A DNA stretch of 36,294 bases, from NCBI GenBank assembly GCA_965648905.1, contig CBFGIT010000024.1, positions 1-36,294 on the forward strand, written 5' to 3'. The notes under the pieces were generated by a model, which saw only the letters and a list, made by a program, of their open reading frames with translations, ran no database searches and was not told the DNA's origin. Positions 6,732-36,206 of the stretch are shown here, piece after piece (positions within the stretch are counted from its first letter, which is position 1; each line of letters starts with the position of its first letter). Source of the DNA: a candidate division WOR-3 bacterium. GTDB lineage: Bacteria > Hydrothermota > Tepidihabitantia > Tepidihabitantales > Tepidihabitantaceae. The position numbers and the translations under genes are program-made.

Positions 6732-6762
6732 CTTGTCGGCAGTCTCTCCGGGCATTCAGAAG

Positions 6763-14001: not shown

Positions 14002-14027
14002 CTTGAGGTCACGATGGTTGAGCATCC

Positions 14028-14071: not shown

Positions 14072-14113
14072 CGTCTGGTGCGTTTGCACGAACTCATACT
14101 GGAGGCAAGTACG

Positions 14114-16282: not shown

Positions 16283-16862
16283 CGCCCCACAGGGTTTGGC
16301 AGTCTGAGCAGAGTCCCAGCAACTGCCCGCACCGCCAAGAACGAATTTGAATGGCCCGGCCTTGAGCAAGTGGCTTGTCCAACAAACCACCGTGAGAAGG
16401 TCTTGGGTTCGCAAGCTGAGTTGTGGCAGGGCGGGAGAGACTAAACAGTCGAATGGCGCGGAGTTTGCCGACCCAGTCATGCCGGACATGAGTCAAGCCG
16501 TCAAACTACCCTGCATTTCAACCTTGGTGCCGGTAGTGCAGTAACTCCACATGCTGGGACTAAGCTGGCGTACCTGCCCGCCGTAACGGCCGGTGTTATG
16601 ATTGGTGACCTCACGGGCGGACTACCGCTAAGCAAGAACAGCCAACCGAAGCGAGTGCGGCACCCACGCTGGCAGCAACAATCCTTCCCAACTGGTGGTA
16701 CCGTTTAGACGAGCTGGCGGCCGCGGTTGCCGTGGAAGACTCCTCTTCGTCATCATAGCGTACCAACCAGCAACTACATCACCTTTGTCAAGACTGGCAT
16801 TTTCCTCGTGCCATTACCCTATGACATTATCGCTGTGCTATCACAGTCAGGCGCAGTTGTCC

Positions 16863-16890
16863 TTGACCACGGTCGTAGGACGGGTATTAT
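16863..16890 (+). promoter_or_regulatory. promoter for the 17003 gene
   Basis: TTGACC (16863-16868), 16 nt, TATTAT (16885-16890); ~105 nt leader ending in TAAGGAGG. Confidence 0.7.
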
Positions 16891-17002
16891 TGTTTGCTCT
16901 GGGACAGCCTCACACGGTCACGTCTGGCCGCAGCCCGTGAGGTCAGTTTGGCAAGAAGTCTCTTGGAGCCAGATATCAGCAACACCATAAGGAGGTCTGC
17001 TA

Positions 17003-18733
17003 ATGCGTAAGTCAGTTGTCCTGTGCTTGGCCTTGGCCGTCGGACTCGCCCTGGCCGGCACTGAGCGGTGGATCGGGCCCAGTCCCGCAGTCCACTACGC
17101 CATTCCGAATCCTGAGCCCGGCATCTTCCCTTACAGCCCGGGTCTGTTCATGCCCGCGCTCGATACGCTCCGTTACGATGACAACATGCCGGCCAGCGCT
17201 TGGGCGATGCGTGCCCGGGGCGGTGGCTGGGGCGTCAAGTTCATCAGCCCGGGCGACAATGTCACCCTTGCCGGTGCGCTGATTCACTTCTATTCGGGCT
17301 GGCCTGTGCCCGGCGGAACGCGTGCCCTGGTCAAGGTCTATGCCGACGATGGGCCTAATGGTTCGCCCGGCACCGAGTTGTTCGCCTCGGACACAGTCAC
17401 GGGCATCGTTCGCGGCCAGTGGAACTACATTCCCATCAACACCTCCATCGTCGGGAGCAACTTCTACGTCTTCTACTGCCACGCCGATACCTACCCGAAT
17501 TGCCCGGGCCTTTCGATCGACGCGTTCAACAATGCACCCTACCACCGCAAGTGGCAGACCATGGGCCCGGGCCAGTTCAGTGAAGACAATACTCGTGGCG
17601 ACTGGCTGATTCGTGCCGTTCTCGACTGGACGCCGCAGGACGTCAACGCCTCCGCGCTCTGGTTTGCAACGAACATGCCCAAGGACACTCTGCCCAACAT
17701 CAACTTCCAGATCCGGGCGATGATCAAGAACCTGGGCAACAATGCTCTGCCTGCCGGCACACCGGTTCGCCTCTTGATAACCGGCCCTCAGGCCTACGTC
17801 TACGAGGGCACGATGAACACGAGCTCGGCCCTGAACCGGGGCCAGACCCAGCAGATGAACTTTTCTCCGGCCTGGCGTATCCCTACAACCTCGGGTGACT
17901 ATCTCATCAAGGTGTGGACCGAGGCTGCCGGCGAGCAGTGGCCGGCGAACGACACCATCGCCTACAACCTGAGTGTGGCGCGCTGGCTCCAGTACTTCAA
18001 TGAAGCCGGCCTCGCTTATCTCACCTGGGCTGGACCGCAACGGGCAGTCAAGTTCAACCCACAGCAGTTCGGGGTGCCGTACCCGGTTGGCCTGGGCAGG
18101 GCGCGGGCGCAGTTCTACTGGCACCAGCAGTACCCCTGGCCCGACTCCAGCTTCAAGTTCTGCGTCTATGACGAAGATGGCTCGACTTTGCTCTACGAAA
18201 GTGAGGAGGTTGAAGCAATCCCCGGGCAGCCCGGCGCGTTCAAGGCCGTGGATTTCGACTCCGTGCTCATCTTCCAGTCCGGCGAGTTCTACGTCTCGGT
18301 AGCGCCGACCAGTCCGACCGGGCACCCATCAAGCTGCGGCAGCGACTCGGCAGTTGGCCGCAGCTTCTACGGTATGCCGGGCGGGTGGCAGCCCTGGGCA
18401 AACGGTGAGCTGTTCATATCAGCTTCGGTCCAGGGCGGAGTCGGACTTGAGGAGGGTTATGACCCGCTGATTCGGCGTCCGAGCCTTACCGTCGGCAGCT
18501 ACCCGAACCCGAGCGAAGGTCAGGTGATTGTCAGGTGGCAGGTCCCGAACCGCCAGACTGTGGACATCAACCTCTACGATGCCACTGGTCGGCTGGTGCG
18601 CAACCTGTTCACAGCCGACAATGCGCGCGTCGGCACTCTCACGTTTGACACCAGAGCGCTGGCTTCAGGCATCTACCTCCTCAGTCTTGAAGCCAAAGAC
18701 GGTACTGCTACCCGCAAGCTCGTCGTGCGGTAG
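17003..18733 (+). CDS. secreted protein with CARDB-like Ig domain and T9SS type A sorting domain
   Basis: TAAGGAGG SD; signal peptide; IKNLG...PANDT CARDB-like segment; CTD YPNPS...LYDATGRLVR...LASGIYL...TRKLVVR. Confidence 0.85.
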   Translation: MRKSVVLCLALAVGLALAGTERWIGPSPAVHYAIPNPEPGIFPYSPGLFMPALDTLRYDDNMPASAWAMRARGGGWGVKFISPGDNVTLAGALIHFYSGWPVPGGTRALVKVYADDGPNGSPGTELFASDTVTGIVRGQWNYIPINTSIVGSNFYVFYCHADTYPNCPGLSIDAFNNAPYHRKWQTMGPGQFSEDNTRGDWLIRAVLDWTPQDVNASALWFATNMPKDTLPNINFQIRAMIKNLGNNALPAGTPVRLLITGPQAYVYEGTMNTSSALNRGQTQQMNFSPAWRIPTTSGDYLIKVWTEAAGEQWPANDTIAYNLSVARWLQYFNEAGLAYLTWAGPQRAVKFNPQQFGVPYPVGLGRARAQFYWHQQYPWPDSSFKFCVYDEDGSTLLYESEEVEAIPGQPGAFKAVDFDSVLIFQSGEFYVSVAPTSPTGHPSSCGSDSAVGRSFYGMPGGWQPWANGELFISASVQGGVGLEEGYDPLIRRPSLTVGSYPNPSEGQVIVRWQVPNRQTVDINLYDATGRLVRNLFTADNARVGTLTFDTRALASGIYLLSLEAKDGTATRKLVVR

Positions 18734-21638: not shown

Positions 21639-24600
21639 CTAGCGGGCAACCTGTATCTTCCGGACAAGTCGTGCATCCGGCGTGGCTAGCCGGCAGAAGT
21701 AGACTCCGGGCGGCAACTGGTGCACGGCCAGCGACTGATTCCACCAACCGCGAGTTTGGCCAGCACGGACTATCGTCATCACCCGGCGGCCGGTCGGGTC
21801 GAACAGTGCCAGGTCAACCGGCATGGCCCGGGCCAGCCCGTATTGGACTGTGGCGCAACCTGTGGTCGGGTTGGGCCAGAGCGGCATGAGCACAGTGCCG
21901 ACGGGCAGCGGCTCGGGCGCTGCGGTGACGGATTGGACGCCGGCAAGTCCGAAAGAGAAGTAGCTCGCACTCGCGTAGCCGTCGGCCTCAAGGATCAGAG
22001 TCATCTCGATGATTGAATCAGCCGGCGATGAGGTGACCGCGTAGATGAACGGGTCTGCCTGATTGCCAGCTTGAGCGCCGACCGGCAGGTCAGGTAGGGC
22101 TGAAGACGAGTCGAGCAAGACTCCCTCACCGTCGTCAACGCGGACACGGGCGGAGACGCTTGACGCGGTGGCGCTGCCCGAGTTCCGCACGAGCACCGAG
22201 ACGGTCAGGGTCTCGCCCGGTTCGGCAAAGCCGTTGTTGTTGCCGTACAGCGAGTCGCTAATCCGAAAAGACACCAGGACAAGCCACGGCCGCGAATTGC
22301 TGCATGGTGGCCAGGTCGTGAATCGCAGAGCCCGCCCGCTCTGGACGTAAGCCGCGGTCGGCGCATGGACATTGTTGTAGAGGTACTGTATGCCGCGCGT
22401 CTCAGTGTTGTCTTCGATACCGACCGTGCAGCCGGAGTTGAGCGAGACGCGGTTGTACTGAAAGATGATGTCGCCGTCGCCGGTCGGCGTCGGATGAAAC
22501 GCCGGGTCGTAGAGGATGGCCTGGAACGTCTCGCGGATGCTGCCCTGATTGATGTGTGCGAACTCCTTGAACTCGACAATCCAGCGGTGATTCGCGGTGT
22601 CGTGGTACTGATAAGCGGTCCCGTACCCTCCTCGGCTCTCGTCCGGGTCCAAGTCGTCCCAGAACGGCGCAATCATCGAGGCGGGCCCCGCGGTATCCGG
22701 AATCGGTCGGTTATAGCCGGTGCGCGAGGTCGTATACCCCTGGCACAGCCAGCCGTTTGAGCAGACCGAAATGAGATTGTCAGAATTGCCATAGTAACGG
22801 AACAGGAACGGCGCGGCCAGCGTCCTTGTTGCCGCGTCCGAGTCTGATACTGCCGGAATCACTTCACCCGGCCCGGGTGGAGCGAGCTCGAGCCAGTCGT
22901 AGACCGGTGCCCGGCCGGACTCGACGTCGGTATCATCATAGCACCAGTAGCCGTAGGCGTCAGGCCCGGTCGGCTCGCCGACCGACCCTTGCTCGCCCGG
23001 AACTTCAAGACTGAACGTGTCGGCATAGTGGTACGTGCCGCCGTCGCCGCTGAGCCGCACGCGAAATTGCACCGGCTGGTTCCGTGCCAGCCCGGGCCCG
23101 GCGGTCACGCCGAACCGGTCAGTTCTGCCCGCAAGCGTCTCGCCGGCTCGCGCCGGGCCATAGAACCCGAGCGAATCGGTGATAACGACGTTCGAGTCCA
23201 GACAGGCCAGAACACCAATCACTCCACTCAGGTTTCCGCGACCCGAGTTGGCGATGCGCAGCTCAAGCCTGCCGCTCTCACCTGCACCCAGGCGGCCGTT
23301 GCCGTTTCCGAATGGGGGGGAATCAAGTAACTGCACTGACACGATGCCAAGCCGACCGGCCCGCACGACGATGTCAATCGGGCAGGCCCACGAATCACCC
23401 TCGCTGTCGTGCATCTTGAGTACAGCCGATACTACCTGCCCCTCGACCGTGCTCGAATCGACTGCCAGGTCAAACGGCTCGCCGACAACCGTGCTCTCGG
23501 GCATGACAACGCCGAAGTACGCCGTGCTATCGTAGACCGTCACCACTGGATCGGCAATGCGCAGCAGAGCGGTAACACCGGTCGCAGTCGCGCCGCCCAG
23601 GTTGCGCAGCGACACAGTCATGCGGAATCTCTCGCCGGGATTCACGACCCGGTCATGATTGCCGACAAAGTCGTCTATCACAGTCCCCGCGACCACAAGA
23701 TACGGCGCGTTGCTTACCATGACTCTGCCGGTGCCCTCGAACGGCAGCAGGTTCGACCCGGTCACGGTCACGCTCATCGTGCCGACATGAGTGGGGTTGA
23801 TTGGCAAGCCAACCTGACCCGAACCCGAGGTTGTGCCCACGGCATAGACAACGCTGTCCATCCAGACGCAGACCTGCGCACCGGGCACAGGCCCACCCTG
23901 CGCGGTCACCGTGACGGTGAAAGTCTGCGGAGCCATCGGGACGACCGAGTCATACTGCACCACCAGTTTCTGGGGCATGCCGGTCCAGACTCCCATATCC
24001 GGGTCTCCAAGCAGGTTCCATTCCTCGTACCGTGCCTGCACGTGATACAACGAGTCAACCCGGAACCTTCCGCGCAGCGTTGCCGGCCCGAGACGATACT
24101 CCTTCTCGTCGTAGAGCGCATTGAAGAAACCCCGATAGACCGCGCTGCGGTAGTGCGCCCCGCTCGATATCGAACCGGTCGTACCGAAATATGCTACTGC
24201 CCCACCCAGCAGCAGCGGGCTGCCGGCCCGGACAAACTGGTCTCCGTACATCGACTCGCCCGGCGACATCGTGATAGTCGCACAAGTTCCACCGACGACG
24301 ACCGGCAGTTCACCGCCGTTGTTCCAGCCGTTCGGGGCGACGGCATTGAACGGCGACCACCAGGTCCCAACGCCCTGGCCCCGATAGGTGATGAACGCGC
24401 GGCCATCAGCCGCGGCCGCATTCACGTTACTGCTGTTGTGACCGCGGTTCATGCTGAAGCTGTCGATCATCTGGTATCCCCGTCCCTGCCAGAACCGATG
24501 GGCGAACCGCGAATCGCCCCAGTAGAAAGTATCGTTCGCATCCTCGCGGACACAGGTCGTCGCCCTCAGGAACCACGTCGTGTCACCGATGAATGACGGC

Positions 24601-25025
24601 CGTTCGTACGCCAGTATCTTGTTCACCATCGTGCTGCACTCGCGGGCCGTGGTCGCCGGCAGGCGGCCGACCGAAATCTCCATCTTGAAGTCGCCCGTCA
24701 TGTTGCCGTAGTAGCAGTCATGGGTGTTGGCGTAGGCCGGAATCTGACTCGGCTGACCGACGAGCAGCACGAACTCCGGCCGAACCGGCCAGGTGTTATA
24801 CGCGTTTCTGATGTAGGTTTGAATCGCAGTGGAGTTAGCGCCAATCTCCGAGACGGGCACGACCTTGGCCAGCGTCCCCTTCCTGGTCTTCCAGTTGGCC
24901 AGCGGCTGAACCACACCGACGTAGCTGTCATAGGCGATAATCAAGTACTTTGCCCCCGGTTCCGCCAGAGCGACCGACGCTGCCAACACCAGCAGCGCAA
25001 GGAACGCGGATTTTGCCTTCATCAT
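21639..25025 (-). CDS. C25 (gingipain)-family protein with Ig/CARDB-like and nidogen-like domains and T9SS-type CTD; non-canonical active site
   Basis: KYLII, WK..KG, FVLLVG, ISVGRLPA, KILAYE, YRGQG, GTC, GAVAYFG, WNLLGDP; C-terminal PNP...FDPTGR...PGVYF. Confidence 0.88.
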   Translation of the reverse strand: MMKAKSAFLALLVLAASVALAEPGAKYLIIAYDSYVGVVQPLANWKTRKGTLAKVVPVSEIGANSTAIQTYIRNAYNTWPVRPEFVLLVGQPSQIPAYANTHDCYYGNMTGDFKMEISVGRLPATTARECSTMVNKILAYERPSFIGDTTWFLRATTCVREDANDTFYWGDSRFAHRFWQGRGYQMIDSFSMNRGHNSSNVNAAAADGRAFITYRGQGVGTWWSPFNAVAPNGWNNGGELPVVVGGTCATITMSPGESMYGDQFVRAGSPLLLGGAVAYFGTTGSISSGAHYRSAVYRGFFNALYDEKEYRLGPATLRGRFRVDSLYHVQARYEEWNLLGDPDMGVWTGMPQKLVVQYDSVVPMAPQTFTVTVTAQGGPVPGAQVCVWMDSVVYAVGTTSGSGQVGLPINPTHVGTMSVTVTGSNLLPFEGTGRVMVSNAPYLVVAGTVIDDFVGNHDRVVNPGERFRMTVSLRNLGGATATGVTALLRIADPVVTVYDSTAYFGVVMPESTVVGEPFDLAVDSSTVEGQVVSAVLKMHDSEGDSWACPIDIVVRAGRLGIVSVQLLDSPPFGNGNGRLGAGESGRLELRIANSGRGNLSGVIGVLACLDSNVVITDSLGFYGPARAGETLAGRTDRFGVTAGPGLARNQPVQFRVRLSGDGGTYHYADTFSLEVPGEQGSVGEPTGPDAYGYWCYDDTDVESGRAPVYDWLELAPPGPGEVIPAVSDSDAATRTLAAPFLFRYYGNSDNLISVCSNGWLCQGYTTSRTGYNRPIPDTAGPASMIAPFWDDLDPDESRGGYGTAYQYHDTANHRWIVEFKEFAHINQGSIRETFQAILYDPAFHPTPTGDGDIIFQYNRVSLNSGCTVGIEDNTETRGIQYLYNNVHAPTAAYVQSGRALRFTTWPPCSNSRPWLVLVSFRISDSLYGNNNGFAEPGETLTVSVLVRNSGSATASSVSARVRVDDGEGVLLDSSSALPDLPVGAQAGNQADPFIYAVTSSPADSIIEMTLILEADGYASASYFSFGLAGVQSVTAAPEPLPVGTVLMPLWPNPTTGCATVQYGLARAMPVDLALFDPTGRRVMTIVRAGQTRGWWNQSLAVHQLPPGVYFCRLATPDARLVRKIQVAR

Positions 25026-25032
25026 TCACCTT

Positions 25033-26325
25033 CTATTCACCAAGAAGCACGAACATCGCACTCACGCCCCCCGGCTCAACCCGGCAAAGATACACGCCGC
25101 TCGGCACCGCCTGAAGGTCCAGCCGCTTCGACGACGCTCTGCTATCGAAAGGCCACTGCAGGACCAGACGGCCGCAGGCGTCAAAGATGCCAATCGTCTG
25201 TTGCCTGTTGTCTGCTGGCGGTTGGCTGCTTACCACGGCAAAGCCGCGGCATGGGTTGGGTGTTATCCTGATTGTCTTATGCTTACTGACTGGTCGTTGC
25301 CTGTCCTTCGGTTCCTCAACTCCGCCGAAACAGCGTATCCACTCCTCACCTCCGTCGGTCGTGAACAGGACGACGGAATTGCCCGCAATCATCCCGCGCA
25401 GGGAATCAGCAAAGTCAATGTCAAACAGCGTTGTGTCGCTGACTGCCTGCTGATAATGCCAGTTCGCACCGCCGTCAGTTGTTCTGATGATAGTGCCATT
25501 CCGGCCGCAGGCCCAGCCACGGTTTCGGTCCACGAAGTCTACCGCGCGCAGAAACTTCGCCTGCGTTGGCACGTTCTGTCTTGCCCAGTCATCTCCGCCA
25601 TTGGTCGTGTGATAGACCACCGCAGCCATGGTTGAGTCTTCTCCGCCGACAACCCAGCCGTGCTGGGCATCACTGAAGTGAACGTCGTAGAAGTCGTACA
25701 CCGTGTCCTTGTGCTGCAGTTCGTGGATGAACGTGTCACCACTGGCTGTGACCTTGGCGATGTAGCCTTGGCCGCGTCGGAACAGAGTCGGATTGCCCAG
25801 GGTATCGAGTTCCGGATACCGGCCGGCCGCAAGCCAGCCGGTAGTTCTGTCAACGAACGAAAGCCCCTGGAAATCGACTGTCTCCGGCACAAACGGAGGG
25901 TTCGGAAAATAGTCCAGCCGCCAGGTCGAACCGCCGTCATCGGTGACGAGCAACATCGCGGTGCCGCCGGACGACCAGCCGTAAGTCGTGTCCAGGAACT
26001 GGATGCGACTTGAGAACTTCGGGCCGCCCAGATTCTGACGAAACCAGCTCGCGCCGCCGTCAGTAGTGGCATGAATCGCGCCGACGTCACCGCAGGTCCA
26101 GCCGCGCTGCTCGTTTAGGAAGAAGAGACCGAACAGCCGACGCATCGTCGGGATGTCCTGAGGTTCCCATGACTCGCCAAAGTCAGGCGTGTGATAGATA
26201 GCAACCGACTCGTTATCAATCACCCAGGCATCGAGCCCATTCGGCGCGACCGCGACGCCGTGATAGACCTGTCCAGTGACCGGAACAACAATCAGAACCA
26301 AGAGGAAGAGAATTGACTGCTTCAA
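25033..26325 (-). CDS. secreted YCF48/BNR-repeat beta-propeller protein with T9SS-type CTD
   Basis: TTG start 5 nt after TAAGGAG; signal peptide; T.DGG..W repeats; CTD ITPNP...FDACGRLV...PSGVY. Confidence 0.85.
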   Translation of the reverse strand: MKQSILFLLVLIVVPVTGQVYHGVAVAPNGLDAWVIDNESVAIYHTPDFGESWEPQDIPTMRRLFGLFFLNEQRGWTCGDVGAIHATTDGGASWFRQNLGGPKFSSRIQFLDTTYGWSSGGTAMLLVTDDGGSTWRLDYFPNPPFVPETVDFQGLSFVDRTTGWLAAGRYPELDTLGNPTLFRRGQGYIAKVTASGDTFIHELQHKDTVYDFYDVHFSDAQHGWVVGGEDSTMAAVVYHTTNGGDDWARQNVPTQAKFLRAVDFVDRNRGWACGRNGTIIRTTDGGANWHYQQAVSDTTLFDIDFADSLRGMIAGNSVVLFTTDGGEEWIRCFGGVEEPKDRQRPVSKHKTIRITPNPCRGFAVVSSQPPADNRQQTIGIFDACGRLVLQWPFDSRASSKRLDLQAVPSGVYLCRVEPGGVSAMFVLLGE

Positions 26326-26334
26326 GCGCACTCC

Positions 26335-29300
26335 TTAGTCTAGAACTACAATCCGAGTTGACCATAGTCTACGCTGGGTCGTCTGGTTCGTCAAAATAAG
26401 GCAATAGACCCCGGTTGGCATTGTCCTCAGGTCAACACGGAACGACGAAGTTCGATGGTCGAACGGGAATTGCCGGACCAGGCGACCGGATGCGTCGAAC
26501 ACCGAGAGAGCAGGAGCTGAGGACCCAGCGATTCGTGGGCTCAGGCGGAGTGTGGTGAGTCCTCGGCAAGGGTTGGGCGTGATGCTGACCGGCTCGTGGC
26601 CGTTTGCTGTCTGCTGTTCGCCGACAGCCGTGAATGTATCCGGCGGGTTGGTCGTGAACCTGATTGCCCGGTTCGGCACGATTGGTGCAGCCGCAGCCGG
26701 GCGCGAGCCGGCAAAAGTGCACTCAAGGCCGTCGTTGTGGCCCGGGCTCTGGATGCCGACGGTAGCATAATTATGGTTGTTGCCCCAGAGTGTATCGTCA
26801 TCCTGGACCACAAGATACTGGACGACAATCGGCCCGTCGCCGGTCTTTGTCGGGTAGTACTGCGGGTCGTACAGCAGGGTCTGAAACGTCTGCTGTTCAG
26901 CCGGATAAGGCGGCCTGAACCCGTGCACGTGCACGCACCGGCTCCACTCAACGACAAACCGGTGGCTCGAGGCATCGTGCCAGCAATAGACACCAGATGC
27001 ATCCATAGTGTCGGTCCGGAAATCATCCCAGAAGGCTGCAACCATCCCATCTGGTCCCATCGGAGATGGGATTGACCAGTTGTAGGCATCTCCGAGCCAG
27101 GTGCTGCCCATCGCCAGGTAGCCGTTGTCGCAGACCGACACCGTGCCGTACTCTTGGCCATAGAACCGAAACGCGAACGGCAACTGAACCGGGACCGACG
27201 TGTCATTCGCCAGATTCACCCTGGTTCCACTGCCACCATGAGCCGGGTCAATCTCAACCCAGTTGAAGTCAGGACGCTCGGCATAGCCGACATCAATATC
27301 GTCGTAGGCGTAGTACCCGTAGTGGTCAGGTCCAAGGGGTGACTGTTCAGTCGGTCTGCCAACAGTGACCACGAAGTCCCTGACCTGCTCCACGCTGCCG
27401 CTGGACAGAACCAGTCGCAGGCTGAAAGCGCGGCCGATGCCGATTGCTCCGGCGGCGCGAACTGCAAATCGGTCTCCGGTGTTCAATACTGAATCACCAG
27501 GCAGCAGGTCCCCGAAGCTCCCAGTTGAATCGAGCACGGCGACGGCTGCCGGATTCAGCGAGCGCAACACGCCGACCAGTCCTGATGCAGTAGCACTGCC
27601 GGTATTGCGCACTCTGACCGACAACTCAGCGCTTTCGCCCGGGTCAAGGATACCGTTCGCATCATGCACCGTGTAACCTCTGGTTGTCAGAGTCGGAGCA
27701 ATTACCACAAGCTCAAGACCGGATTCCCAAGTGTTGCTGCCACTCGTGACGCTCAGACCCAGGGGAATCACCTGCCTGCTGGTGCATGATGCAGTCACCA
27801 CCAGCAGGAACGGAGCCGCGTTTGCTGAATTGCCCGGTTCGATGTTGCCGTAGTCACGTACCGAATCCAGAACCACTGCGGCATCGTCCAGCGCCCGCAG
27901 CACGGCCCTGACCCCGGTCGCGGTCTGACTCGTGCCGAAGTTCTTCAACGTGATGCTCAAGTTGACGTTTCCCGGCCGAGCCTCAGTCGGGCTATGTTCG
28001 AGACATCCGACAAAGACCGGTGAGGAAACCACCTGGACTCTGCCCAGATGAGGCGTCAGGTTCGGCCCGGACACAGTGACAAGGAGCGAGTCCGCCACCG
28101 TGCTCGGCAGTGCGAACCTTGCCCGGCCTGACGCGCCTGTGCGTCGAACCAGGTGTACCTGCCCTGGGCCCAGCAGACTGACCGACGCGCCTGTCACTGG
28201 CATCGAGGCCCCGTCCCTGACCTCAACCTCAAACGAACTTGTGCCGGCTGGAATCGAACCCGGGTAAGTAACCGCGAGAGAGCGTGGTACGCCGGTCCAC
28301 ATCTCAAGTGACGGGTCGCCCAGCAGATTGTACACGTGGAAGTAGAGCCTCAAATCAAACGAGTCTTCGAGCAGAGGGAAGTTTTCAAGCTGCGCCAGCT
28401 TGCCTGAGTACATTGCCGGGCCGCAGGTCTGAATCCCCTGGTCAAACACGGCGCGGTAGATACCATAGTCCATGCAGTTGTTCCACCGGGTCGACGTACC
28501 GGAGTAGGAACTGCCCCAGAACGCGACCGCACCCTTGGGATTGGTCGGAGTACCGGCCCTGAGCCAGGCTTCACCAAAGCACGGGTTGCGCTGGAAGTTA
28601 CCGGTCCCGCAGTAGATGCTCGTTACGACCGGGAGCATCCAGCCGTTGGCCAGACCATAGACGTCGTTGATTAGAAACTGAGGATAACCCCACCCGTCGT
28701 AATTACCCCAGCCCCGACCATTGATGAACAGCACCCCTTGGTTCACTGCCGTATCGACCGGGCCACGACCGTATCTTGTCGGTGGATAGAAGATGGTATC
28801 TACTGTATTGAATCCTTTGCCGAGCAGGTAGTCCCGAATCCACCGTTTTGTGACCAGAGCCGTGACCGCGGGCGTACCGCCCTCCTGATACGATGTCCCG
28901 ACCATCAGGGCACGACGATACCATGACGTATCTGCCGTGTACGGTGTCATCTCGTAGCCAATGGTCTTCGCAACCATGCAATCAAGCTCCGAGGAGTTGG
29001 CCGCGGGCAGTCTGCCCACATACAGGTCGGCCAGGTAGTCGCTGCCGTCCACACAGGCATAGGGGTGGTCGGTAACGCAGGGCGTTCCGCCGGTGATGAA
29101 TGCTGGAAGCTTGTTCACTGCGCCGACCAGCAGCACATAGCTAGGACATGGCTCCCATGTTGCATAAGCGTTGGCGATGAAGGCCCGAATCTGCTCCTTG
29201 GTGGAGCCGGTCTCAGACAGCCGTTTGACCCAGACCTTGAATCCCTTTCGTTCCTTCCAGGCCGCCAGAGGCAGAATCGACGAATAGAAGTCGTCCGGCA

Positions 29301-29772
29301 CGATGATGAGATAGCCGGTCTGCTCAGTTCCGCCGTCCTGTTCAGAAAGGCCCAACTCTGCTGCAAGTCTCCTTCCCATCTCACCTCTGCCGTGCTGCGA
29401 CACGATTGGCCGGTCATAGTGCAGGCGCAATTTCACTTCGCTGCGTCCCTGTGTTGCAGTTTCTTCGGGCCGCCGGACAATCAGCGGCACGACCTCGAGC
29501 CCGGCAGCAATTGCCGGCTCACCGAAGCTCACCACACCGGCCCAGTTGCCGTCTCCTGAAGCTTCAGGTCCTCTATCCATCTCTACGGTCGGCAGCATCC
29601 CATCCGGGGCCGGAACCAGATGCGCGGCCGCACCTGAGCCAGCACTGGAGTCAGCTCTCTTCAGACCGGTTACGACAATCTGCACCGTGTTCGCGCCGGT
29701 CATGCGCAGGTGCCAGGACGGCTCGCTCGGCTCGGACAAACCGGCCGCAATCAACAGCCAGAGAATGCACAT
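26335..29772 (-). CDS. C25 (gingipain)-family protein with short pro-region, Ig/CARDB-like and nidogen-like domains and T9SS-type CTD; non-canonical active site
   Basis: GYLII, WKERKG, YVLLVG, TDHPY..VDG.D, VGRLPA, GRGWG, IYCGTG, CFGEAW, KGAVAF, YNLLGDP; CTD ITPNP...FDASGRLVR...PTGVY. Confidence 0.88.
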   Translation of the reverse strand: MCILWLLIAAGLSEPSEPSWHLRMTGANTVQIVVTGLKRADSSAGSGAAAHLVPAPDGMLPTVEMDRGPEASGDGNWAGVVSFGEPAIAAGLEVVPLIVRRPEETATQGRSEVKLRLHYDRPIVSQHGRGEMGRRLAAELGLSEQDGGTEQTGYLIIVPDDFYSSILPLAAWKERKGFKVWVKRLSETGSTKEQIRAFIANAYATWEPCPSYVLLVGAVNKLPAFITGGTPCVTDHPYACVDGSDYLADLYVGRLPAANSSELDCMVAKTIGYEMTPYTADTSWYRRALMVGTSYQEGGTPAVTALVTKRWIRDYLLGKGFNTVDTIFYPPTRYGRGPVDTAVNQGVLFINGRGWGNYDGWGYPQFLINDVYGLANGWMLPVVTSIYCGTGNFQRNPCFGEAWLRAGTPTNPKGAVAFWGSSYSGTSTRWNNCMDYGIYRAVFDQGIQTCGPAMYSGKLAQLENFPLLEDSFDLRLYFHVYNLLGDPSLEMWTGVPRSLAVTYPGSIPAGTSSFEVEVRDGASMPVTGASVSLLGPGQVHLVRRTGASGRARFALPSTVADSLLVTVSGPNLTPHLGRVQVVSSPVFVGCLEHSPTEARPGNVNLSITLKNFGTSQTATGVRAVLRALDDAAVVLDSVRDYGNIEPGNSANAAPFLLVVTASCTSRQVIPLGLSVTSGSNTWESGLELVVIAPTLTTRGYTVHDANGILDPGESAELSVRVRNTGSATASGLVGVLRSLNPAAVAVLDSTGSFGDLLPGDSVLNTGDRFAVRAAGAIGIGRAFSLRLVLSSGSVEQVRDFVVTVGRPTEQSPLGPDHYGYYAYDDIDVGYAERPDFNWVEIDPAHGGSGTRVNLANDTSVPVQLPFAFRFYGQEYGTVSVCDNGYLAMGSTWLGDAYNWSIPSPMGPDGMVAAFWDDFRTDTMDASGVYCWHDASSHRFVVEWSRCVHVHGFRPPYPAEQQTFQTLLYDPQYYPTKTGDGPIVVQYLVVQDDDTLWGNNHNYATVGIQSPGHNDGLECTFAGSRPAAAAPIVPNRAIRFTTNPPDTFTAVGEQQTANGHEPVSITPNPCRGLTTLRLSPRIAGSSAPALSVFDASGRLVRQFPFDHRTSSFRVDLRTMPTGVYCLILTNQTTQRRLWSTRIVVLD

Positions 29773-29775
29773 CGC

Positions 29776-30987
29776 TTACTCCTCATGCTTGATGACAACC
29801 AGTCCCAGGTCGCGGTCGCCGCCGAACACACAGCGCCCGGCCGCGAACACGCCGACCATGTGCGGCGTGTCCAGACGGGCAATAAGTCGCGGCGCGTCAG
29901 GTACTGAAACGTCTACTACTGACAGCCCGCCGTCACCGCAGGCAACATAGGCATAGCCCTCATCGACAGTCACCCCGAGCGCGTACCCGCTCAACGCCAG
30001 ACGGCCAATCGTCTGCGGTGCTCTGGGATTCGAGATGTCGGCAACAAGCAGCCCCTCACGGCCATCGGCGATAAATGCGCGACTACCCCGGACCGCGATT
30101 CCTCGGGCGTTACCGGGCGTGTCCATTGCCCCGACCTGAATCGGCGGCTGAGTGTCAGTCCGCCAGCAGGCCATGCCCAGTTGCCCGACCGCGACATACG
30201 CATTCGTACCCGACAGAACAACCCCGCGGCAGTCGCGCGGATAGTAACCCTGATACACGAGTTCGGGTGACGCCGGGTTGGTGATTCTTATCTTGACGAA
30301 CTGAGCATCGGCCGCGACATAGACGAACGAATCCTGGAGCGCGATGTCATACCCGTAGCCGGGCTGGAGGTATTCGAGCACGCCGGTGATTGCCAGACTG
30401 TCCGGGCGCCGCACGTCAATAACGACCAGCTCCTTGTAGCCGTACGCGACGTACGCAAAGCTGTCACTTGCGGTTACTCCCCAGGCTTCGTTCAGCGAGT
30501 CCATCTTGGAACCAAGAAACACAGGCCCGAGCGGGTCGGTAACGTCGAACACTGCCAGCCCGGCCTGACCGTCGGCCACGTACGCGCGGTTGCCCTGTAC
30601 CCAGACGTCGTGCGGGTAGCCCTGAGTCTTGGCGCTGGCAGCCAGCCGAAATCGCTCCAGCGTGACCATACGGGTGTTGCTCCAATCGCCCCATGCCCCG
30701 GCCGCGCTGCGCGGTCGCACACGCCAATAGTAGACACCGTCCGCTCCGAGGTTCAGCTCCAGCGACTCAGTCGCTACTGTTGTATCGGCAAGCAGCTTCT
30801 TGAGCTGGCGGTCGGTCCCGACTTGGAACTGGCTCGTTGCCGCGTCGGTCTGCCAAGAGAAGATGACAGCCGGCCGCCGGACCACTGCGCTATCCTCGGG
30901 TGCGAGCAGGGTTACACCGGCCGGCTCCGGCAGCGGCCTGACGCAACCGAATAATGCCAGAAGTCCGAACAACGTTACCTGTCTCAT
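29776..30987 (-). CDS. lipoprotein with an Fn3-like domain and LVIVD-repeat beta-propeller
   Basis: Lipobox LFGC; YYWRVR..WGDWS Fn3-like segment; repeated AYVADG..GL.V.DV..P units. Confidence 0.85.
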   Translation of the reverse strand: MRQVTLFGLLALFGCVRPLPEPAGVTLLAPEDSAVVRRPAVIFSWQTDAATSQFQVGTDRQLKKLLADTTVATESLELNLGADGVYYWRVRPRSAAGAWGDWSNTRMVTLERFRLAASAKTQGYPHDVWVQGNRAYVADGQAGLAVFDVTDPLGPVFLGSKMDSLNEAWGVTASDSFAYVAYGYKELVVIDVRRPDSLAITGVLEYLQPGYGYDIALQDSFVYVAADAQFVKIRITNPASPELVYQGYYPRDCRGVVLSGTNAYVAVGQLGMACWRTDTQPPIQVGAMDTPGNARGIAVRGSRAFIADGREGLLVADISNPRAPQTIGRLALSGYALGVTVDEGYAYVACGDGGLSVVDVSVPDAPRLIARLDTPHMVGVFAAGRCVFGGDRDLGLVVIKHEE

Positions 30988-31998
30988 CTAAGACCTCCCT
31001 GCCGCTGTCACAGTGACCCCGACGCTAAACCGGCCCGTCCGATAGTTCTTGATGTCTTCGATCTTCTCGCTGCAGGGCGAGCTGACCTCACGCCATTCGG
31101 ACTCGTAACCAGCGGTCAAAGTCGTCTGGCTGATCCGGTAGCGGGCCTCAACCGAGATTCCCTCAAGCAGGTCAACCCGACCAGCATGTCCGGGGTCAAC
31201 GGCCTCGGTGTTGGCCGTTGTGAACTGCCGTCGGGCGAGCGAGAACCCCGTTTCCAGACTGAACCGAACGAGCCGCCGTGGCCGAGTTAGAATCTTTATC
31301 TCGCCGCGGTGCTGGGAGTAGGATATGTCCGGCACCGGCCCTTTGGCCGATGCGAGCTTGTACTCATAGTCCAGCGCAAGACCAAGACCGCGCAGCACCT
31401 CCCAGTTCAGTTCCGCACCGGGCCGGTGTGCACGCGTGTCGTAGAACCCGAACGGCCGGACGTAACTGTCAATCTCGAACCGGTAGCGCGGCTCCAGAGT
31501 CACTGCCCCCACCCGCTGTCTAACCCGAGCCGTAAGCAGATGCTCGGTGAAAGCACATGCTGCGTACTCGCCGACCTTTGTCGGGTCGCGAAAGTGCCTT
31601 ATCAGATAGCTCGGGATATAGAGGTATGAAAGGCTGGCGCGGCTGGCCGCGGTCAGCCCTTGCGAGACCAGAATCGTCAGCATGCCGTAGCTCTTCGTCG
31701 GATTGGAGACGTATCCGTGCAGCCGCGTTCTCAAGTTTAACAGGGTTCCTCGCCCGACGGTTCGAATTCGTTGGCCGAGACTGAACTCAAGCGTCGCCCC
31801 GAGGTCATCGGCGGTGCGAATCTGGAACCGGACCGGGTCGGTTCGATTGCGGAACGCTTCAAGGTCGGCGGGCGAGTATTCGAACAGATTGTCGGAGTAG
31901 ACCAGTGCCCCCTGCATCTGCCATTCGGTTCGAGCACCGGCAAACCCCAACCCCAGGGCCAGGAAGAGCCAGACCCCTGTCATGCCCCGGCTATTCAT
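30988..31998 (-). CDS. probable outer-membrane beta-barrel protein
   Basis: Signal peptide; N-terminal Y.DN motif; many amphipathic strands with alternating aromatic/aliphatic residues (LSYLY, LEPRYRF, LDYEY, VEARYR, AGYE.EWR); start at ATG 31998 overlapping the upstream stop. Confidence 0.65.
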   Translation of the reverse strand: MNSRGMTGVWLFLALGLGFAGARTEWQMQGALVYSDNLFEYSPADLEAFRNRTDPVRFQIRTADDLGATLEFSLGQRIRTVGRGTLLNLRTRLHGYVSNPTKSYGMLTILVSQGLTAASRASLSYLYIPSYLIRHFRDPTKVGEYAACAFTEHLLTARVRQRVGAVTLEPRYRFEIDSYVRPFGFYDTRAHRPGAELNWEVLRGLGLALDYEYKLASAKGPVPDISYSQHRGEIKILTRPRRLVRFSLETGFSLARRQFTTANTEAVDPGHAGRVDLLEGISVEARYRISQTTLTAGYESEWREVSSPCSEKIEDIKNYRTGRFSVGVTVTAAGRS

Positions 31999-32857
31999 AC
32001 TTCTCGCCCGCAAGCACGTCCACGGCGAGGGCTGCGGTTCGAGCCAGTGTCCCGCTCACCGCAAGGGAAAGCTCATGCTTACCGGGCCCGAGGTTGAACC
32101 ATGCTTTTCGCTCAGTGGACGGGGCGAGCCCGGGCTCGTTGCCGTAGACGGCAGACGGTGACCGACTGACCCGGAAGGCGCGACGAACCAGTGCGTTCTT
32201 ACCTTCACTCACGACCAGGCTGAAACTCTGCTCTCCCAGCAGGTCCGGCGTATAGTTAAGACGGGCACGTAGACGCACGCGACAAGGTCCTTCAACCGTT
32301 AGCTTCGTTGGCTGCCTTGCTGCTACTTCGTGGAAGGTGGTGCTGTCCCGACCCTCGATTAGTTCAAGCGGCTTGGTTCCGAGTCTTGCTGTCCGCCACG
32401 GCCGCGGTTCCTGGAATCCGAATCTGACCCCGACCGTGTCCGACCCGGCCTCATCGAGCACAAGCCGGTAGCGGTTAGCGCCAGGCGGAACCTGGACAAA
32501 GAATGACCGCCACTGTCCCACATTTCGGTGATTCGGCCCGTAGCTTGAAGGCGAAATGCGGACTTCGTGTTCGACCGGTCGCTGGGCGTCGTCCTGCCAC
32601 AAACTGAGCCGGTAGCGTGCCCGGTCGGTTGCTGAAGCTGGCCACCACAACCGGGTGTAGACCCGAAGCCAGGTTGGCCCTTCGACCTCAAAGTCAAGCG
32701 GCGCGTTGCCGGTCAGCAGATAGTAACTGACGTCAACCCGCCGCACTACGCTCACGTCAACGCGCGCCGCGTTCGAAGGAACCTTCACCTCTGCGGACCG
32801 CGTCAGCCCGAACGCAACCAGCAGCGCCATCAGCGTGCCAGTCATTCGCCGTTTCAC
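31991..32857 (-). CDS. secreted hypothetical protein with two repeated beta-rich domains
   Basis: Signal peptide; internal repeat VEGPTWLRVYTRL / VEGPCRVRLRARL; GTGA overlap with pgsW. Confidence 0.75.
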   Translation of the reverse strand: MKRRMTGTLMALLVAFGLTRSAEVKVPSNAARVDVSVVRRVDVSYYLLTGNAPLDFEVEGPTWLRVYTRLWWPASATDRARYRLSLWQDDAQRPVEHEVRISPSSYGPNHRNVGQWRSFFVQVPPGANRYRLVLDEAGSDTVGVRFGFQEPRPWRTARLGTKPLELIEGRDSTTFHEVAARQPTKLTVEGPCRVRLRARLNYTPDLLGEQSFSLVVSEGKNALVRRAFRVSRSPSAVYGNEPGLAPSTERKAWFNLGPGKHELSLAVSGTLARTAALAVDVLAGEKYE

Positions 32858-33951
32858 ACCGCCTCCTTGTCCAGCGCATCATCCCGGACGCCCAAATACC
32901 ACTCGACATCGTAACGCACCGAGAACACGAGTAACCCGAGTAGAAGCAGCGCCAGGCCGCCGGCCAGCACGACCGAGTAGCGCTGCTCAAAGAACAGCCT
33001 GCCCCTGCCCGGCGCAGGCAGGGGCACCGGTGCAACCGGCAGATGGTAGCTCAGTGCCACCGAGTTCGGATTGATGATGTTGACTACCGGAACCTGCCGG
33101 TCGCGTGCCCGGCCGACCAAGCCCCTGTAATGACTCCGGCGCCACCGCTCAGAAATGACGCGTGACGGAACCCGCTCCAGGGGCCCGCCCGAATTCGCCA
33201 CTGCCCGGCCCAGCGTGACAATCACCCGGGCGTGCTGAAACAGGCTGTCGCGCAGCGCCACACCCTGTTCAAGACTCTCCGGTACGTGCAGCCTGACATG
33301 AGCCGACTCGACCGCGGCAGCGAGCAACGAACGACCCTCGGGTGAAAGTCCTCGTCCATCGTCGTCCTCGCCGCCCAGGAACGCCGCCGTACTCCGAAAA
33401 TGCCACAGGTCCGAACTGACCAAGTGCCGTTCAACGTCGAGCCACGACAACCCCGGCAGGTTTGCGCCCCACATCCCGGCGCTCTGGGTTGTGGCAATCA
33501 CCGGCACAATGCCGAGCGCGCTGCAGGCTGCGAGAAGTTGAACGTTCAGAGCCGGATAGGTTCCGTCCCAGCTCACGCCGACCGTGTCGCCGCGCCTTGC
33601 CCCGGCCTGGGTCAGCATCTCGACCAGTGCCGCGCTGAAGTTCGGATTCGTCGTGGTCAGCGCGTCGCTCAGGTCACTCCGTCCATAGGTCGTCTGGGAG
33701 TACTGCACGCCAACCAGCGCAGTTCCGTTCGGGTCGTTGACGCTGTCCACCGGGAACCCGAGACCATGTCGTAGTTCAGTCATCAATTGGAATGCACGAC
33801 GTGACAGCTCGACCGCAGCCATCTTCTCGTCAAAGAGCCGGGAACGCACCGGCCGCGCGCTGCGGCTCACCAGCCAGTAGCTGACGACCGACAGCACGGC
33901 GAGCACGACCAGCACCCAACGATTGACCTTGCCTCTTCGTCGCCGGATCAG
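32854..33951 (-). CDS. pgsW: poly-gamma-glutamate system protein (PgsW-like); probable CTG start at 33951 (first standard start GTG 33915)
   Basis: NDPN.T.LVG, TT.G, TTNPNF.A, G.YPALN, MWGAN.P, GGEDD.G motifs; N- and C-terminal TM segments; directly after pgsC. Confidence 0.85.
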   Translation of the reverse strand: MIRRRRGKVNRWVLVVLAVLSVVSYWLVSRSARPVRSRLFDEKMAAVELSRRAFQLMTELRHGLGFPVDSVNDPNGTALVGVQYSQTTYGRSDLSDALTTTNPNFSAALVEMLTQAGARRGDTVGVSWDGTYPALNVQLLAACSALGIVPVIATTQSAGMWGANLPGLSWLDVERHLVSSDLWHFRSTAAFLGGEDDDGRGLSPEGRSLLAAAVESAHVRLHVPESLEQGVALRDSLFQHARVIVTLGRAVANSGGPLERVPSRVISERWRRSHYRGLVGRARDRQVPVVNIINPNSVALSYHLPVAPVPLPAPGRGRLFFEQRYSVVLAGGLALLLLGLLVFSVRYDVEWYLGVRDDALDKEAV

Positions 33952-34391
33952 AATGCGCCTCCGGTCAGCACGGTAATCGTCAGGCGTGTCAGCACTGCGG
34001 CCAGAAGCATCGTCGCGATTGTCTCCAAAATCCCTTGTCGGTTCATCCAGTACGCCACGAGGCCGGGAATCACGTAGCCGATGACGCCCAGGTCAAAGTG
34101 CGCCGCGCCGACCGTCAGATGCGGTACAATCCGAGTAACGTAGCCGAGCAGGTATCCGACCAGGACCCCGAGCAGAAGCATCCGTCGGCCGAACACGAGC
34201 ATGAACCGACCGACAACCTTGATGATGAGCAACGTCGCAAGCGAAACCGCGATGGTTGCTGCCACCCTGACCGGTTCGTTCAGGGCTAACGCGAAGTAAC
34301 CGGGCACGACAATCCCACCCGCGGCAACGCCGATCGTCTCGGTCAGAACGAACGACGCGAGCATCCCGAGCCCAATTGTCTCAATAACCAT
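33948..34391 (-). CDS. pgsC: poly-gamma-glutamate biosynthesis membrane protein PgsC/CapC
   Basis: E..G..AGGIVVPGY.AL, FGRR, IGYVIPGL.A.W..RQG motifs; TAATG overlap with pgsB. Confidence 0.93.
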   Translation of the reverse strand: MVIETIGLGMLASFVLTETIGVAAGGIVVPGYFALALNEPVRVAATIAVSLATLLIIKVVGRFMLVFGRRMLLLGVLVGYLLGYVTRIVPHLTVGAAHFDLGVIGYVIPGLVAYWMNRQGILETIATMLLAAVLTRLTITVLTGGAF

Positions 34392-35590
34392 TAGTCGACC
34401 CTGGCCACTGCATCGTTTTGACCGTTGACTTGCGTGTTCTGTGCCCGTTGTGCCAGATACTCAATCAGCCGCTCGCCGTAACCTACTGTGTTGCCCGTCG
34501 CAAAGACGAGCGCTTTGGCCTTGACCAGCCGGACCAGCCCGTCGTAGACCAGTGCCGGCTCACGCTCGTCACCCAGGTCGTGCAGACGCCCGGGCGGAAT
34601 CCCGACTTCCTTTGCCCGGTTGGTGAAGACCCGCGTGGCTCCACCGGTCGCAACATAGCCCGCCGCATCCCACGACGAAACCAGCTCGGCCAGTTGCCGC
34701 GAGCGATCGGGCCGGTCTGCCCGGCAGTTGACCAGCACAATCCGTTCGGCACTGCGCCCCTTGACCATGTCCCAGAGCATCGCAATCGAATCCGGGTCAT
34801 TGGCCGCCATTGTGTAGACGACCTCCATCTCCCGATCCGAGTTCTCAATCCGGTAGATGCGCATCACGCCGAAATCCGGGTCGCTGCGCTGCATGCCGGC
34901 CAGAGCCTGGCTCCGTTCGACGTTCAGACTGGCGCAGACGTCCAGAGCCAGTGCCACATTCTCCTTGTGTTCGATGTAGCCAAACCCCTTCATCTCTTCA
35001 TCGCTGACCGTATTCGGGTCGGCAACGGTCATCTTGACGCCGGGTCTCACTCTGCGACGGAGAGTTGCAAGCTGCGGCCCGCGCTCGGCAGTGAAGAACA
35101 TCCCCTTGTGCGGCACGGTGTTCGCCAGGGCCCGCCCGACATCGGTGACGGTCGGGCCCATTACGTCGAGATGGTCGGCCCGGACATTGGTGATGACGCC
35201 GTGGGTCGGCCGAATCAGCATCTGGTTTTCAAGCCGCTGATACTCGGGCACGAGCGCCATGCACTCTATCACCAGCGCGTCGGCACGGTGCTTCCGCGCC
35301 AGCCGGACAATCCGCAGCTCCTCGATGATGTTGGCTTTGCCCAATCGGCGAACCGGATGCTCCTCATGGTCGCTGACAATGAACCTTGGCCTCGTGCCGG
35401 TCACCTTGGCTGCCACGCGCATGCCCCCGCCTCGGAGACCGGCGGCAATCAGCCGCGTCACTGACGACTTGCCGCGCGTTCCGTTGACTTGGACTCTTAC
35501 CGGAATCTGCGCCAGATTACGGCGGTGGAGGGCATACTCTGCTATTCCGTAACCGATGAACAGCAGCACGAGAATGAGAACAAACAGCAT
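34391..35590 (-). CDS. pgsB: poly-gamma-glutamate synthase PgsB/CapB (Mur ligase family)
   Basis: N-terminal TM, VNGTRGKSSVTRLIAAGL, ANIIE, ECMAL.P, TNVRADHLDVMGP, HKENVALAL, AANDP.S, NCRADR.DR; start at ATG 35590. Confidence 0.95.
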   Translation of the reverse strand: MLFVLILVLLFIGYGIAEYALHRRNLAQIPVRVQVNGTRGKSSVTRLIAAGLRGGGMRVAAKVTGTRPRFIVSDHEEHPVRRLGKANIIEELRIVRLARKHRADALVIECMALVPEYQRLENQMLIRPTHGVITNVRADHLDVMGPTVTDVGRALANTVPHKGMFFTAERGPQLATLRRRVRPGVKMTVADPNTVSDEEMKGFGYIEHKENVALALDVCASLNVERSQALAGMQRSDPDFGVMRIYRIENSDREMEVVYTMAANDPDSIAMLWDMVKGRSAERIVLVNCRADRPDRSRQLAELVSSWDAAGYVATGGATRVFTNRAKEVGIPPGRLHDLGDEREPALVYDGLVRLVKAKALVFATGNTVGYGERLIEYLAQRAQNTQVNGQNDAVARVD

Positions 35591-35607
35591 CGGGGGACTG
35601 GCGCTTG

Positions 35608-35635
35608 AGTATAGCCATTCGGTTCTGCATGTCAA
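35608..35635 (-). promoter_or_regulatory. promoter of the pgs-C25 operon
   Basis: Minus strand TTGACA (35635-35630), 16 nt, TATACT (35613-35608), 17 nt before ATG 35590. Confidence 0.8.
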
Positions 35636-36206
35636 ATTCCCGGCGCGAGTGGTAGTATCCTTAGTTGTGTGTAAATTGACTGGAAAAGTGCCGGGCAGGG
35701 CGCATCCTCTCATGTGGCGGCGGGATATTAGCAAACCATGAGGAGAATAGCCAATACCCGACAATGACTACATCTATACCTTGAGCCGCACCACCCAGCG
35801 CGAAGCGGCAGGCTGGCAGCAACACTATATTGACCACTGGCAGGACAACAAGGACTCCTTTGCCGACGCGAGGCTGAGCCGATGATGGCCCCGATGCGCC
35901 CACTGACAGCGTTCAAGCGGAACCATCGGTACGGCTGAGTCTGCATGGCTTGGCGGGATGGATTGTTGGCTGAAAAGGGCTGCAGCCGGACCGTGCAAGC
36001 GAACTAGCAGCGAGTGTGCTAGGCGTCAGACCGCGGGTTGGATGGTCCCACGCTGGTTGTCGTGCTTGAGCAATGCTTGTGGTAGTCGGACCCATGTCCT
36101 CCATCCCCTGGCTGGTAAGGGGGACGGTTCCCCTTTCCGAACCCCCTGCCCCGGCGACGGCCGAAACCGGTGATGTCCTATACTTCCTGTAAATTCGCGG
36201 GTGGTT

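Follow-up and report, generated by a model that had tools for sequence, protein, structure and literature searches.

Two proteins of the gingipain family (peptidase family C25), here called C25-A and C25-B, are encoded within a poly-gamma-glutamate (PGA) operon on a 36,294-nucleotide contig (CBFGIT010000024.1, assembly GCA_965648905.1) of a candidate division WOR-3 bacterium, the whole of which is referred to below as the window. Both proteins keep the catalytic cysteine of the gingipains and have lost the catalytic histidine, and both belong to large families in which the histidine is likewise missing and the cysteine, together with an arginine two residues ahead of the old histidine site, is strictly kept. 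All of the data are consistent with the idea that, as judged from their sequences, C25-A and C25-B are not conventional Cys/His proteases. Tentatively, and with rather less than even confidence, we read them as histidine-independent modules that may process PGA at the cell surface, as dedicated accessory parts of a two-membrane (diderm) PGA system.

Loss of the catalytic histidine in C25-A, C25-B and their relatives

When aligned by phmmer with protein chains of the PDB (E 3e-15 for C25-A and 7e-31 to 8e-32 for C25-B), the segments FITYRGQG of C25-A and FINGRGWG of C25-B lie opposite NYTGHG of the gingipain RgpB, which places Gln217 and Trp355 at the position of RgpB His211, and Cys248 and Cys388 align with RgpB Cys244. 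The codons and this alignment bear out the preliminary description of the locus, in which both paralogues were held to keep the cysteine and to carry Gln or Trp instead of the histidine. On inspection, neither sequence contains a histidine within 10 residues on either side of the old histidine site or of the cysteine. AlphaFold models of the C25 and immunoglobulin (Ig)-like parts had predicted local distance difference test (pLDDT) values of 95.1 (C25-B) and 95.3 (C25-A), and a Foldseek comparison matched both to RgpB (PDB 1cvr; C25-B, E 7.1e-33, template-modelling (TM) scores 0.87/0.89; C25-A, E 9.3e-31, TM 0.89/0.87). Taken over both models, TM scores were 0.87–0.91 to RgpB and 0.77–0.83 to Kgp, with PorU far weaker. 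In each model, the old histidine position and the cysteine both directly follow the C-terminal end of a beta-strand, and these are the places to which a review of clan CD assigns the Cys/His dyad (PMC4357240).

C25-A starts with a signal peptide, recognised by eye, and passes straight into the C25 domain with no prodomain between them; beyond it come an Ig-like and a NIDO-like domain, with CARDB-like repeats between the two, and a type IX secretion system (T9SS) C-terminal domain. C25-B has an N-terminal region of ~153 residues, of which the first 150 gave nothing significant in a Pfam search. Its C25 domain comes next, and after that lie an Ig-like domain, repeats and, as in C25-A, NIDO-like and T9SS C-terminal domains. 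Both proteins match PF01364 over the full length of the profile (151.2 bits for C25-A and 225.4 bits for C25-B; cut-off 23). The T9SS tail scores 24.3 bits with TIGR04183 in each of them (cut-off 23) and 25.4 and 24.4 bits, respectively, with PF18962, slightly under the cut-off of 27. A C-terminal domain with the pattern GPD.YGY..YDD.D ... FWDD is also common to C25-A (22386-23000, minus strand) and C25-B (26590-27300, minus strand); its match to Pfam NIDO (PF06119) is weak (E 0.0045 and 0.0048; 17.4 bits, under the cut-off of 25), and precomputed annotation assigns two A-type homologues (P0263 and P0271) to this family as well.

The extent of histidine loss was assessed by searching with each C25 domain. 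A HMMER search with the C25-B domain, covering 1.84 billion cluster representatives, returned 11074 proteins at E<=0.001 (1355 at E<=1e-30), and the best 150 of the 11074 were inspected in a MAFFT alignment. The cysteine was present in 150/150, and the catalytic column held a histidine in a single representative (P0022); the other 149 had W (90), F (17), Y (11), A (7), T (6), L (4), I (3), G (3), S (2), one each of R, N, C, D and P, and one gap. For the C25-A domain, 305 matches came from a word-indexed search, and the best 120 of these, including three proteins of the source genome, were examined. Here the histidine was found in 0/120 and the cysteine in 120/120, and the histidine column held Q in 75, followed by V, L, S, I, A, E, T, P, N, G, D and M. 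Where A-type homologues carry a name, it is in most cases 'C25 family cysteine peptidase [candidate division WOR-3 bacterium]', and a few come from Latescibacteria. Because databases label such proteins in this way, genome surveys count them as proteases.

The same state was seen in the genomic regions described below: all 43 C25 open reading frames (ORFs) in 20 phylum-wide regions lack the histidine and have both the cysteine and the arginine, as do all 100 C25 ORFs in 80 metagenome loci. The motifs are NGRGWG...YC[GA]TGN in all 10 B orthologues and YRGQGV in all seven visible A orthologues of species-representative genomes. Across the 20 regions the replacing residue varies: in B-type proteins it is W within the order that the window comes from and I, D, N, S, V, R or Q outside it, and in A-type proteins it is Q, S, N, V, I or P. 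As orthologues carry so many other residues at this site, Gln and Trp can be ruled out as functional stand-ins for the histidine. On these alignments, loss of the histidine is an old, clade-wide trait, fixed in orthologues and in two large families and not the product of chance at a single locus. The suggestion that RGxG marks a wider subfamily thus holds, given histidine-less, cysteine-keeping sites in 149/150 B-type and 120/120 A-type homologues as well as in every ORF of the two genomic surveys.

The prevalence of Gln in the A type raises another possibility, namely that the cysteine serves non-nucleophilic or self-directed chemistry, such as an internal Cys-Gln thioester comparable to that of thioester-domain adhesins, a redox switch or a metal site, and that the proteins act as covalent adhesins or sensors. 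The Gln would lie beside the cysteine in the fold, and it occurs in those 75 of the 120 A-type homologues and in 7/7 close orthologues. Against this, the A type also includes members with V, L, S, I, A, N or P at this site and B-type proteins have Trp or other residues, no Cys-Gln pair is conserved across the clade, and no second invariant cysteine or metal ligand was seen in the alignments of the A and B families. We consider chemistry of this kind very improbable.

The source genome (3.0 Mb; the window is its contig C24) has 27 matches to PF01364, mostly of 1000–2100 residues, an unusually large expansion of gingipain-fold surface proteins. Twenty-three of these could be placed in one alignment, which omits two pieces of a split gene on contig C17 and two weak partial matches on C10 and C16. 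Histidine and cysteine are both present in 16/23, and six keep the cysteine without the histidine (C25-A, C25-B, C1_40353, C25_30826, C15_73033 and C29_9510). The remaining paralogue, C6_36860 (C6:36860-37852), keeps the histidine (HVGHS) and has Ser at the catalytic cysteine, the opposite of the loss in C25-A and C25-B. In a maximum-likelihood tree of 68 rows (quick search, LG+G4), a clade reading YRGHG at the site is sister to the histidine-less sequences, and these comprise the A family (25 rows; Shimodaira–Hasegawa approximate likelihood ratio test (SH-aLRT) 100) and the B family (26 rows). A histidine-bearing paralogue, C30_17057, attaches at the base of the B family, where branching is unresolved, and the tree as obtained needs two changes of histidine state, although one may be enough.

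Linkage to poly-gamma-glutamate genes

Nine minus-strand genes are packed together in the window, with overlaps or gaps of <=32 bases, in the order pgsB, pgsC, TIGR04332, unk2, unk1, an LVIVD propeller, C25-B, a BNR propeller and C25-A. The adjacent pgsB, pgsC and TIGR04332 genes all score above the curated cut-offs of their families, and these three, unk2 and unk1 are each present as one copy in the genome.

This arrangement recurs across the phylum. A scan of species-representative genomes with C25-B gave 11 loci. At 10 of them the gene is an orthologue (43–72% identity), and the surrounding order matches that of the window up to the contig ends; the remaining locus holds a distant paralogue and shows no synteny. 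Among 201 sampled genomes of the phylum, pgsB was found in 89 and a B-like gene (E<=1e-100, with at most three candidates scored per genome) in 80, both being present in 70, pgsB alone in 19 and the B-like gene alone in 10. Of the 89 genomes with pgsB, 44 have the B-like gene 4.0–6.2 kb downstream of it on the same strand. The rest comprise five with both genes on one contig in another arrangement, 21 with the B-like gene on other contigs only, a figure to be read with the fragmentation of many of these assemblies in mind, and 19 with no match at E<=1e-100. When 20 regions from different families and classes were compared, the full operon order was found in 18/20, often with extra A-type copies. 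Finally, a metagenome scan with a 13-row B alignment left 80 loci, of which 42 had at least 7 kb of upstream sequence, and 38 of these 42 carry pgsB, pgsC or TIGR04332 (pgsB in 14; pgsC and/or TIGR04332 in 24 more, where pgsB would lie past the flank; none of them in four).

C25-A and C25-B are therefore constant members of the diderm PGA cluster, and an RGxG clade tied to pgs genes, which had been put forward as a point to check, is what the 10 of 11 genome loci, 44 of 89 pgsB genomes, 18 of 20 regions and 38 of 42 metagenome loci describe. Their near-obligate linkage to pgsB, pgsC and TIGR04332 makes them a concrete candidate for the processing or holding of PGA on the diderm surface.

Variants of the layout were also observed. 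In two of the 20 regions (L049 and L050; genomes G119 and G063), the LVIVD, C25-B, C25-A and BNR genes stand upstream of pgsB and pgsC, not downstream. In many related operons (L031, L037, L038, L042, L114, L115 and others) the BNR gene is followed not by a single A-type C25 gene but by two to four in tandem.

Invariant residues and possible roles

In the B-family alignment only four positions, D235, R254, R353 and C388, are identical in 151/151 rows, and the same four (D103, R121, R215 and C248) are invariant in the 121 rows of the A family. The arginine two residues before the old histidine site is thus present in every row of both families (121/121 and 151/151), and across pgs-linked C25 domains this arginine and the cysteine were found in 45/45, where 20 of 338 columns are near-invariant. 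According to a review that cites the crystal structure, the base of the RgpB S1 pocket is formed by the C-gamma atoms of Val242 and Thr209, Gly210-His211 line the pocket, and Asp163 is its charge anchor (PMC9559808). As the invariant arginine aligns with Thr209, it can reasonably be inferred that it points into the old S1 pocket and would favour an anionic group there.

Five histidine-bearing paralogues of the same genome read YRGHG, so that the arginine is found together with the histidine; with the YRGHG clade as sister in the tree, this rules out the arginine as a novelty that arrived with histidine loss, and the arginine is older than that loss and not its replacement. The earlier proposal that the arginine could bind a carboxylate accordingly stands in part: its invariance and its place at the S1 position make such a role reasonable, and its occurrence in YRGHG proteins separates that role from the loss of the histidine.

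No histidine elsewhere in the domain has taken over in a conserved manner. The best histidine columns reach 98/151, 80/151 and 61/151 in the B family and at most 64/121 in the A family (65% and 53%), and a relocated catalytic histidine can be ruled out on conservation, C25-B itself having Ser at the 80/151 column. That column corresponds to Ser427 of C25-B, and the histidine of the 80 members stands in a THTR motif on a loop that matches RgpB Trp284 to Met288, which lines S1. C25-B and its close orthologues are without histidine at 427, and some B-family members might have a different active-site make-up. As to acidic residues, the HMMER alignment pairs RgpB Glu152, which orients the catalytic histidine, with E297 of C25-B and with D162, next to E161, of C25-A, the alignment of this loop being uncertain; with the same reservation, the A family retains an acidic residue close by, E161 being E in 113 and D in 8 of 121 rows.

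These residues bear on whether the proteins might be ordinary endopeptidases acting on proteins with some other general base (a non-conserved histidine such as that at B position 427, the arginine, or the acidic residue of the A family), perhaps with a preference for an acidic P1 residue, and with the pgs link reflecting co-regulation only. The invariant cysteine, the acidic residue kept near the Glu152 position in the A family, the histidine at position 427 in 80/151 B-family members and the 27 PF01364 matches of the genome, which suggest a protein-degrading lifestyle, would all suit such enzymes. On the other hand, C25-B has Ser at 427, no histidine column is conserved above 65%, co-regulation alone would hardly account for a compact operon whose order with the PGA synthesis genes is kept throughout the phylum, and the clan CD enzymes described to date rely on a His/Cys dyad according to the clan review (PMC4357240). 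Ordinary endopeptidases of this kind therefore appear improbable.

The alternative of binding-only pseudo-proteases is less easily set aside, and we hold it to be unlikely though clearly worth weighing. In that case the gingipain fold would be kept at the surface as a scaffold, or as a module that binds polymer, and would tether or organise the PGA layer or some other anionic ligand, with the cysteine used for ligand contact or local structure. The histidine is lost and its site varies even among orthologues, the B family has lost its counterpart of Glu152, no replacement histidine is conserved, the A type without a prodomain would need no latency control, an arginine-lined pocket would suit binding, and the synteny with pgs genes is accommodated. 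What argues against binding alone is the cysteine, which is invariant in every sequence examined where most other positions drift, and a thiol is an unusual need for the mere binding of a carboxylate. Moreover, an active site that had died would be expected to shed its cysteine as well, and the inactive relative C6_36860 did replace its cysteine; because the cysteine of C25-A and C25-B is strictly kept where this degenerate relative has lost it, it probably still does something chemical.

The reading that we tentatively favour, of histidine-independent PGA-processing modules, can be set out as follows. PgsB, PgsC and the TIGR04332 protein would make the polymer at the inner membrane, and unk2, the putative unk1 barrel and the LVIVD lipoprotein would carry it through the envelope. 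C25-A and C25-B, which we infer to be exported to the cell surface by the T9SS, would handle the operon's product there together with the BNR propeller. Their arginine-lined pocket would have an affinity for carboxylates, the simplest ligand being the free alpha-carboxylates of PGA, and the invariant cysteine may carry out a histidine-independent covalent step on the polymer, whether trimming, transfer or anchoring. This would be the job of CapD in Bacillus. CapD, a member of the gamma-glutamyltranspeptidase (GGT) family (PF01019), is the PGA depolymerase and anchoring enzyme of Bacillus. No gene of this family was found in the source genome, which is 99.6% complete and has CapA-like PF09587 genes elsewhere; since a GGT/CapD gene is absent, the trimming or anchoring role would be unfilled by known families.

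Several observations weigh against this reading. The arginine shared with the YRGHG proteins is not particular to histidine-less domains. Few B-family members retain the counterpart of RgpB Glu152 (E in 10/151, in a loop whose alignment is uncertain), and because the old histidine site also varies freely, no general acid or base is evident there, which fits a non-catalytic protein equally well; taken with the lack of a prodomain in the A type, these features fit a binding-only module as well as they fit an enzyme. The loop alignments near RgpB Asp163 and Trp284, on which part of the pocket comparison depends, are uncertain, and the count of Trp among the metagenome loci is biased, as one of the two search patterns contained RGW. 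Four of the six histidine-less paralogues lie far from the sole pgsB of the genome and are not pgs-linked, and the A-type family, taken in its entirety, is not specific to PGA.

A more specific proposal, which we regard as doubtful, is that the clade represents a new clan CD enzyme: a histidine-independent Cys/Arg gamma-glutamyl transferase or hydrolase that would cut PGA or attach it covalently to the diderm outer surface, with the alpha-carboxylate of the substrate or the pocket arginine as acid/base, and so would be a diderm counterpart of CapD built on the gingipain fold. A large old clade that lacks the histidine while its cysteine and pocket arginine are under strict selection would represent either an unusual clan CD mechanism or a well-defined pseudo-protease family.

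Other features of the window and comparison with known systems

The features of the operon and the site residues of the two C25 proteins are collected in the table.

Table. Positions in the window of the genes of the PGA operon and of the C25 domains and site residues.
Feature	Position	Strand	Evidence and remarks
pgsB	34391..35764	minus	TIGR04012, 4.6e-117, 391 bits (cut-off 222.7)
pgsC	33948..34391	minus	TIGR04011, 114.8 bits (cut-off 96.45)
TIGR04332 poly-gamma-glutamate system protein, third gene of PgsA-less systems	32854..33915	minus	1.3e-57, 195.4 bits (cut-off 100)
unk2, secreted, no known family	31991..32857	minus	syntenic
unk1, candidate outer-membrane beta-barrel	30988..32013	minus	syntenic; protein-atlas features match outer-membrane beta-barrel clusters at 0.98 (no more than a lead)
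LVIVD-repeat beta-propeller, probably a lipoprotein	29776..30987	minus	PF08309, 3.1e-42; LFGC lipobox by eye; syntenic
C25-B gene	26335..29772	minus	1145 residues
C25-B peptidase_C25 domain, residues 154-491	28300..29313	minus	PF01364, E 1.7e-66
C25-B Arg353, two residues ahead of the old His site	28714..28716	minus	
C25-B Trp355, at the catalytic-His position	28708..28710	minus	codon TGG, context FINGRGWGNYDGWG
C25-B Cys388, catalytic-Cys equivalent	28609..28611	minus	codon TGC, context VVTSIYCGTGN
BNR/Ycf48-like beta-propeller with T9SS C-terminal domain, between the C25 genes	25033..26331	minus	PF14870, 4.7e-28; PF18962, 30 bits; syntenic
C25-A gene	21639..25025	minus	1128 residues; ORF and translation, Pfam/NCBIfam
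C25-A peptidase_C25 domain, residues 27-344	23994..24947	minus	PF01364, E 6.2e-44
C25-A Arg215, two residues ahead of the old His site	24381..24383	minus	equivalent to RgpB Thr209 by alignment
C25-A Gln217, at the catalytic-His position	24375..24377	minus	codon CAG, context FITYRGQGVGTWW
C25-A Cys248, catalytic-Cys equivalent	24282..24284	minus	codon TGT, context VVVGGTCATI

The hidden Markov model match of pgsB spans 34454-35584, and the listed TTG start adds ~60 N-terminal residues beyond TIGR04012 and the orthologues; the true start is probably further downstream. A Pfam search gave nothing significant for unk1 or unk2, both of which accompany pgsB, pgsC and TIGR04332 throughout the phylum, and together they form a candidate outer-membrane export route for the polymer. 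Elsewhere in the window, two consecutive alpha/beta gene pairs of a 2-oxoacid:ferredoxin oxidoreductase (POR/PFOR-type domains) occupy 5013-10168 on the plus strand, and three more surface-protein genes lie at 12697-18733, also on the plus strand: one with BNR/Ycf48-like and FlgD-Ig domains, one that has a Reg_prop propeller and weakly matches PorZ-like proteins, and one that has a T9SS tail and belongs to no known family.

Set beside known systems, C25-A and C25-B most closely resemble the gingipains RgpB and Kgp of Porphyromonas gingivalis (MEROPS C25, clan CD; PDB 1cvr, 4ief, 4rbm and 6i9a), with which they share the catalytic and Ig-like fold at TM scores of 0.80–0.91, the full PF01364 profile, the cysteine at the same strand end, the D..Y..GR motifs conserved in the N-terminal subdomain and a T9SS C-terminal sorting domain. 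They differ from gingipains in that the catalytic histidine is Gln (A) or Trp (B) and is variable in their relatives, and RgpB Thr209 is replaced by the invariant arginine. Asp163, the acidic S1 anchor for a basic P1 residue, has no evident equivalent in either protein, its HMMER-aligned partners being Ala305 in C25-B and Arg173 in C25-A in a loop of uncertain alignment. The A type also lacks a prodomain, and the setting is a PGA operon, as against virulence or nutrition loci. C25-A and C25-B are thus homologues within the C25 family that fall outside its active Cys/His peptidase class, and they should not be filed as active gingipain-type peptidases.

PorU, the T9SS sortase (NF033707, PDB 6za2), likewise has a C25-related fold and is associated with the T9SS. 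It is a transpeptidase and not a plain protease and so provides a precedent for C25-like domains in transfer reactions (PMC8545088, PMC4560394). Unlike PorU, however, C25-A and C25-B reach only 47.9 and 28 bits with NF033707 (cut-off 420), and Foldseek TM scores to 6za2 are about 0.4/0.19. They are T9SS cargo, whereas PorU is part of the machinery, and two separate PorU-like genes that keep GHG and the cysteine are present in the genome.

A full-text search of the literature outside subscription journals found nothing on C25 components of PgsB-PgsC-TIGR04332 clusters, on gingipains or PGA in WOR-3, on pgsB together with the T9SS, or on gingipain-like pseudo-proteases. The likeness to CapD and other GGT enzymes would lie in the proposed job only, that of a surface enzyme encoded with pgs or cap genes that cuts or transfers PGA, and is a functional analogy: their fold is unrelated to C25 and their nucleophile is a Thr. 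With the known diderm PgsB-PgsC-TIGR04332 clusters for PGA, the window shares the same three core genes above curated cut-offs, and what is new here is that the C25 component of such a cluster is a histidine-less clade in which the cysteine and the arginine are invariant.

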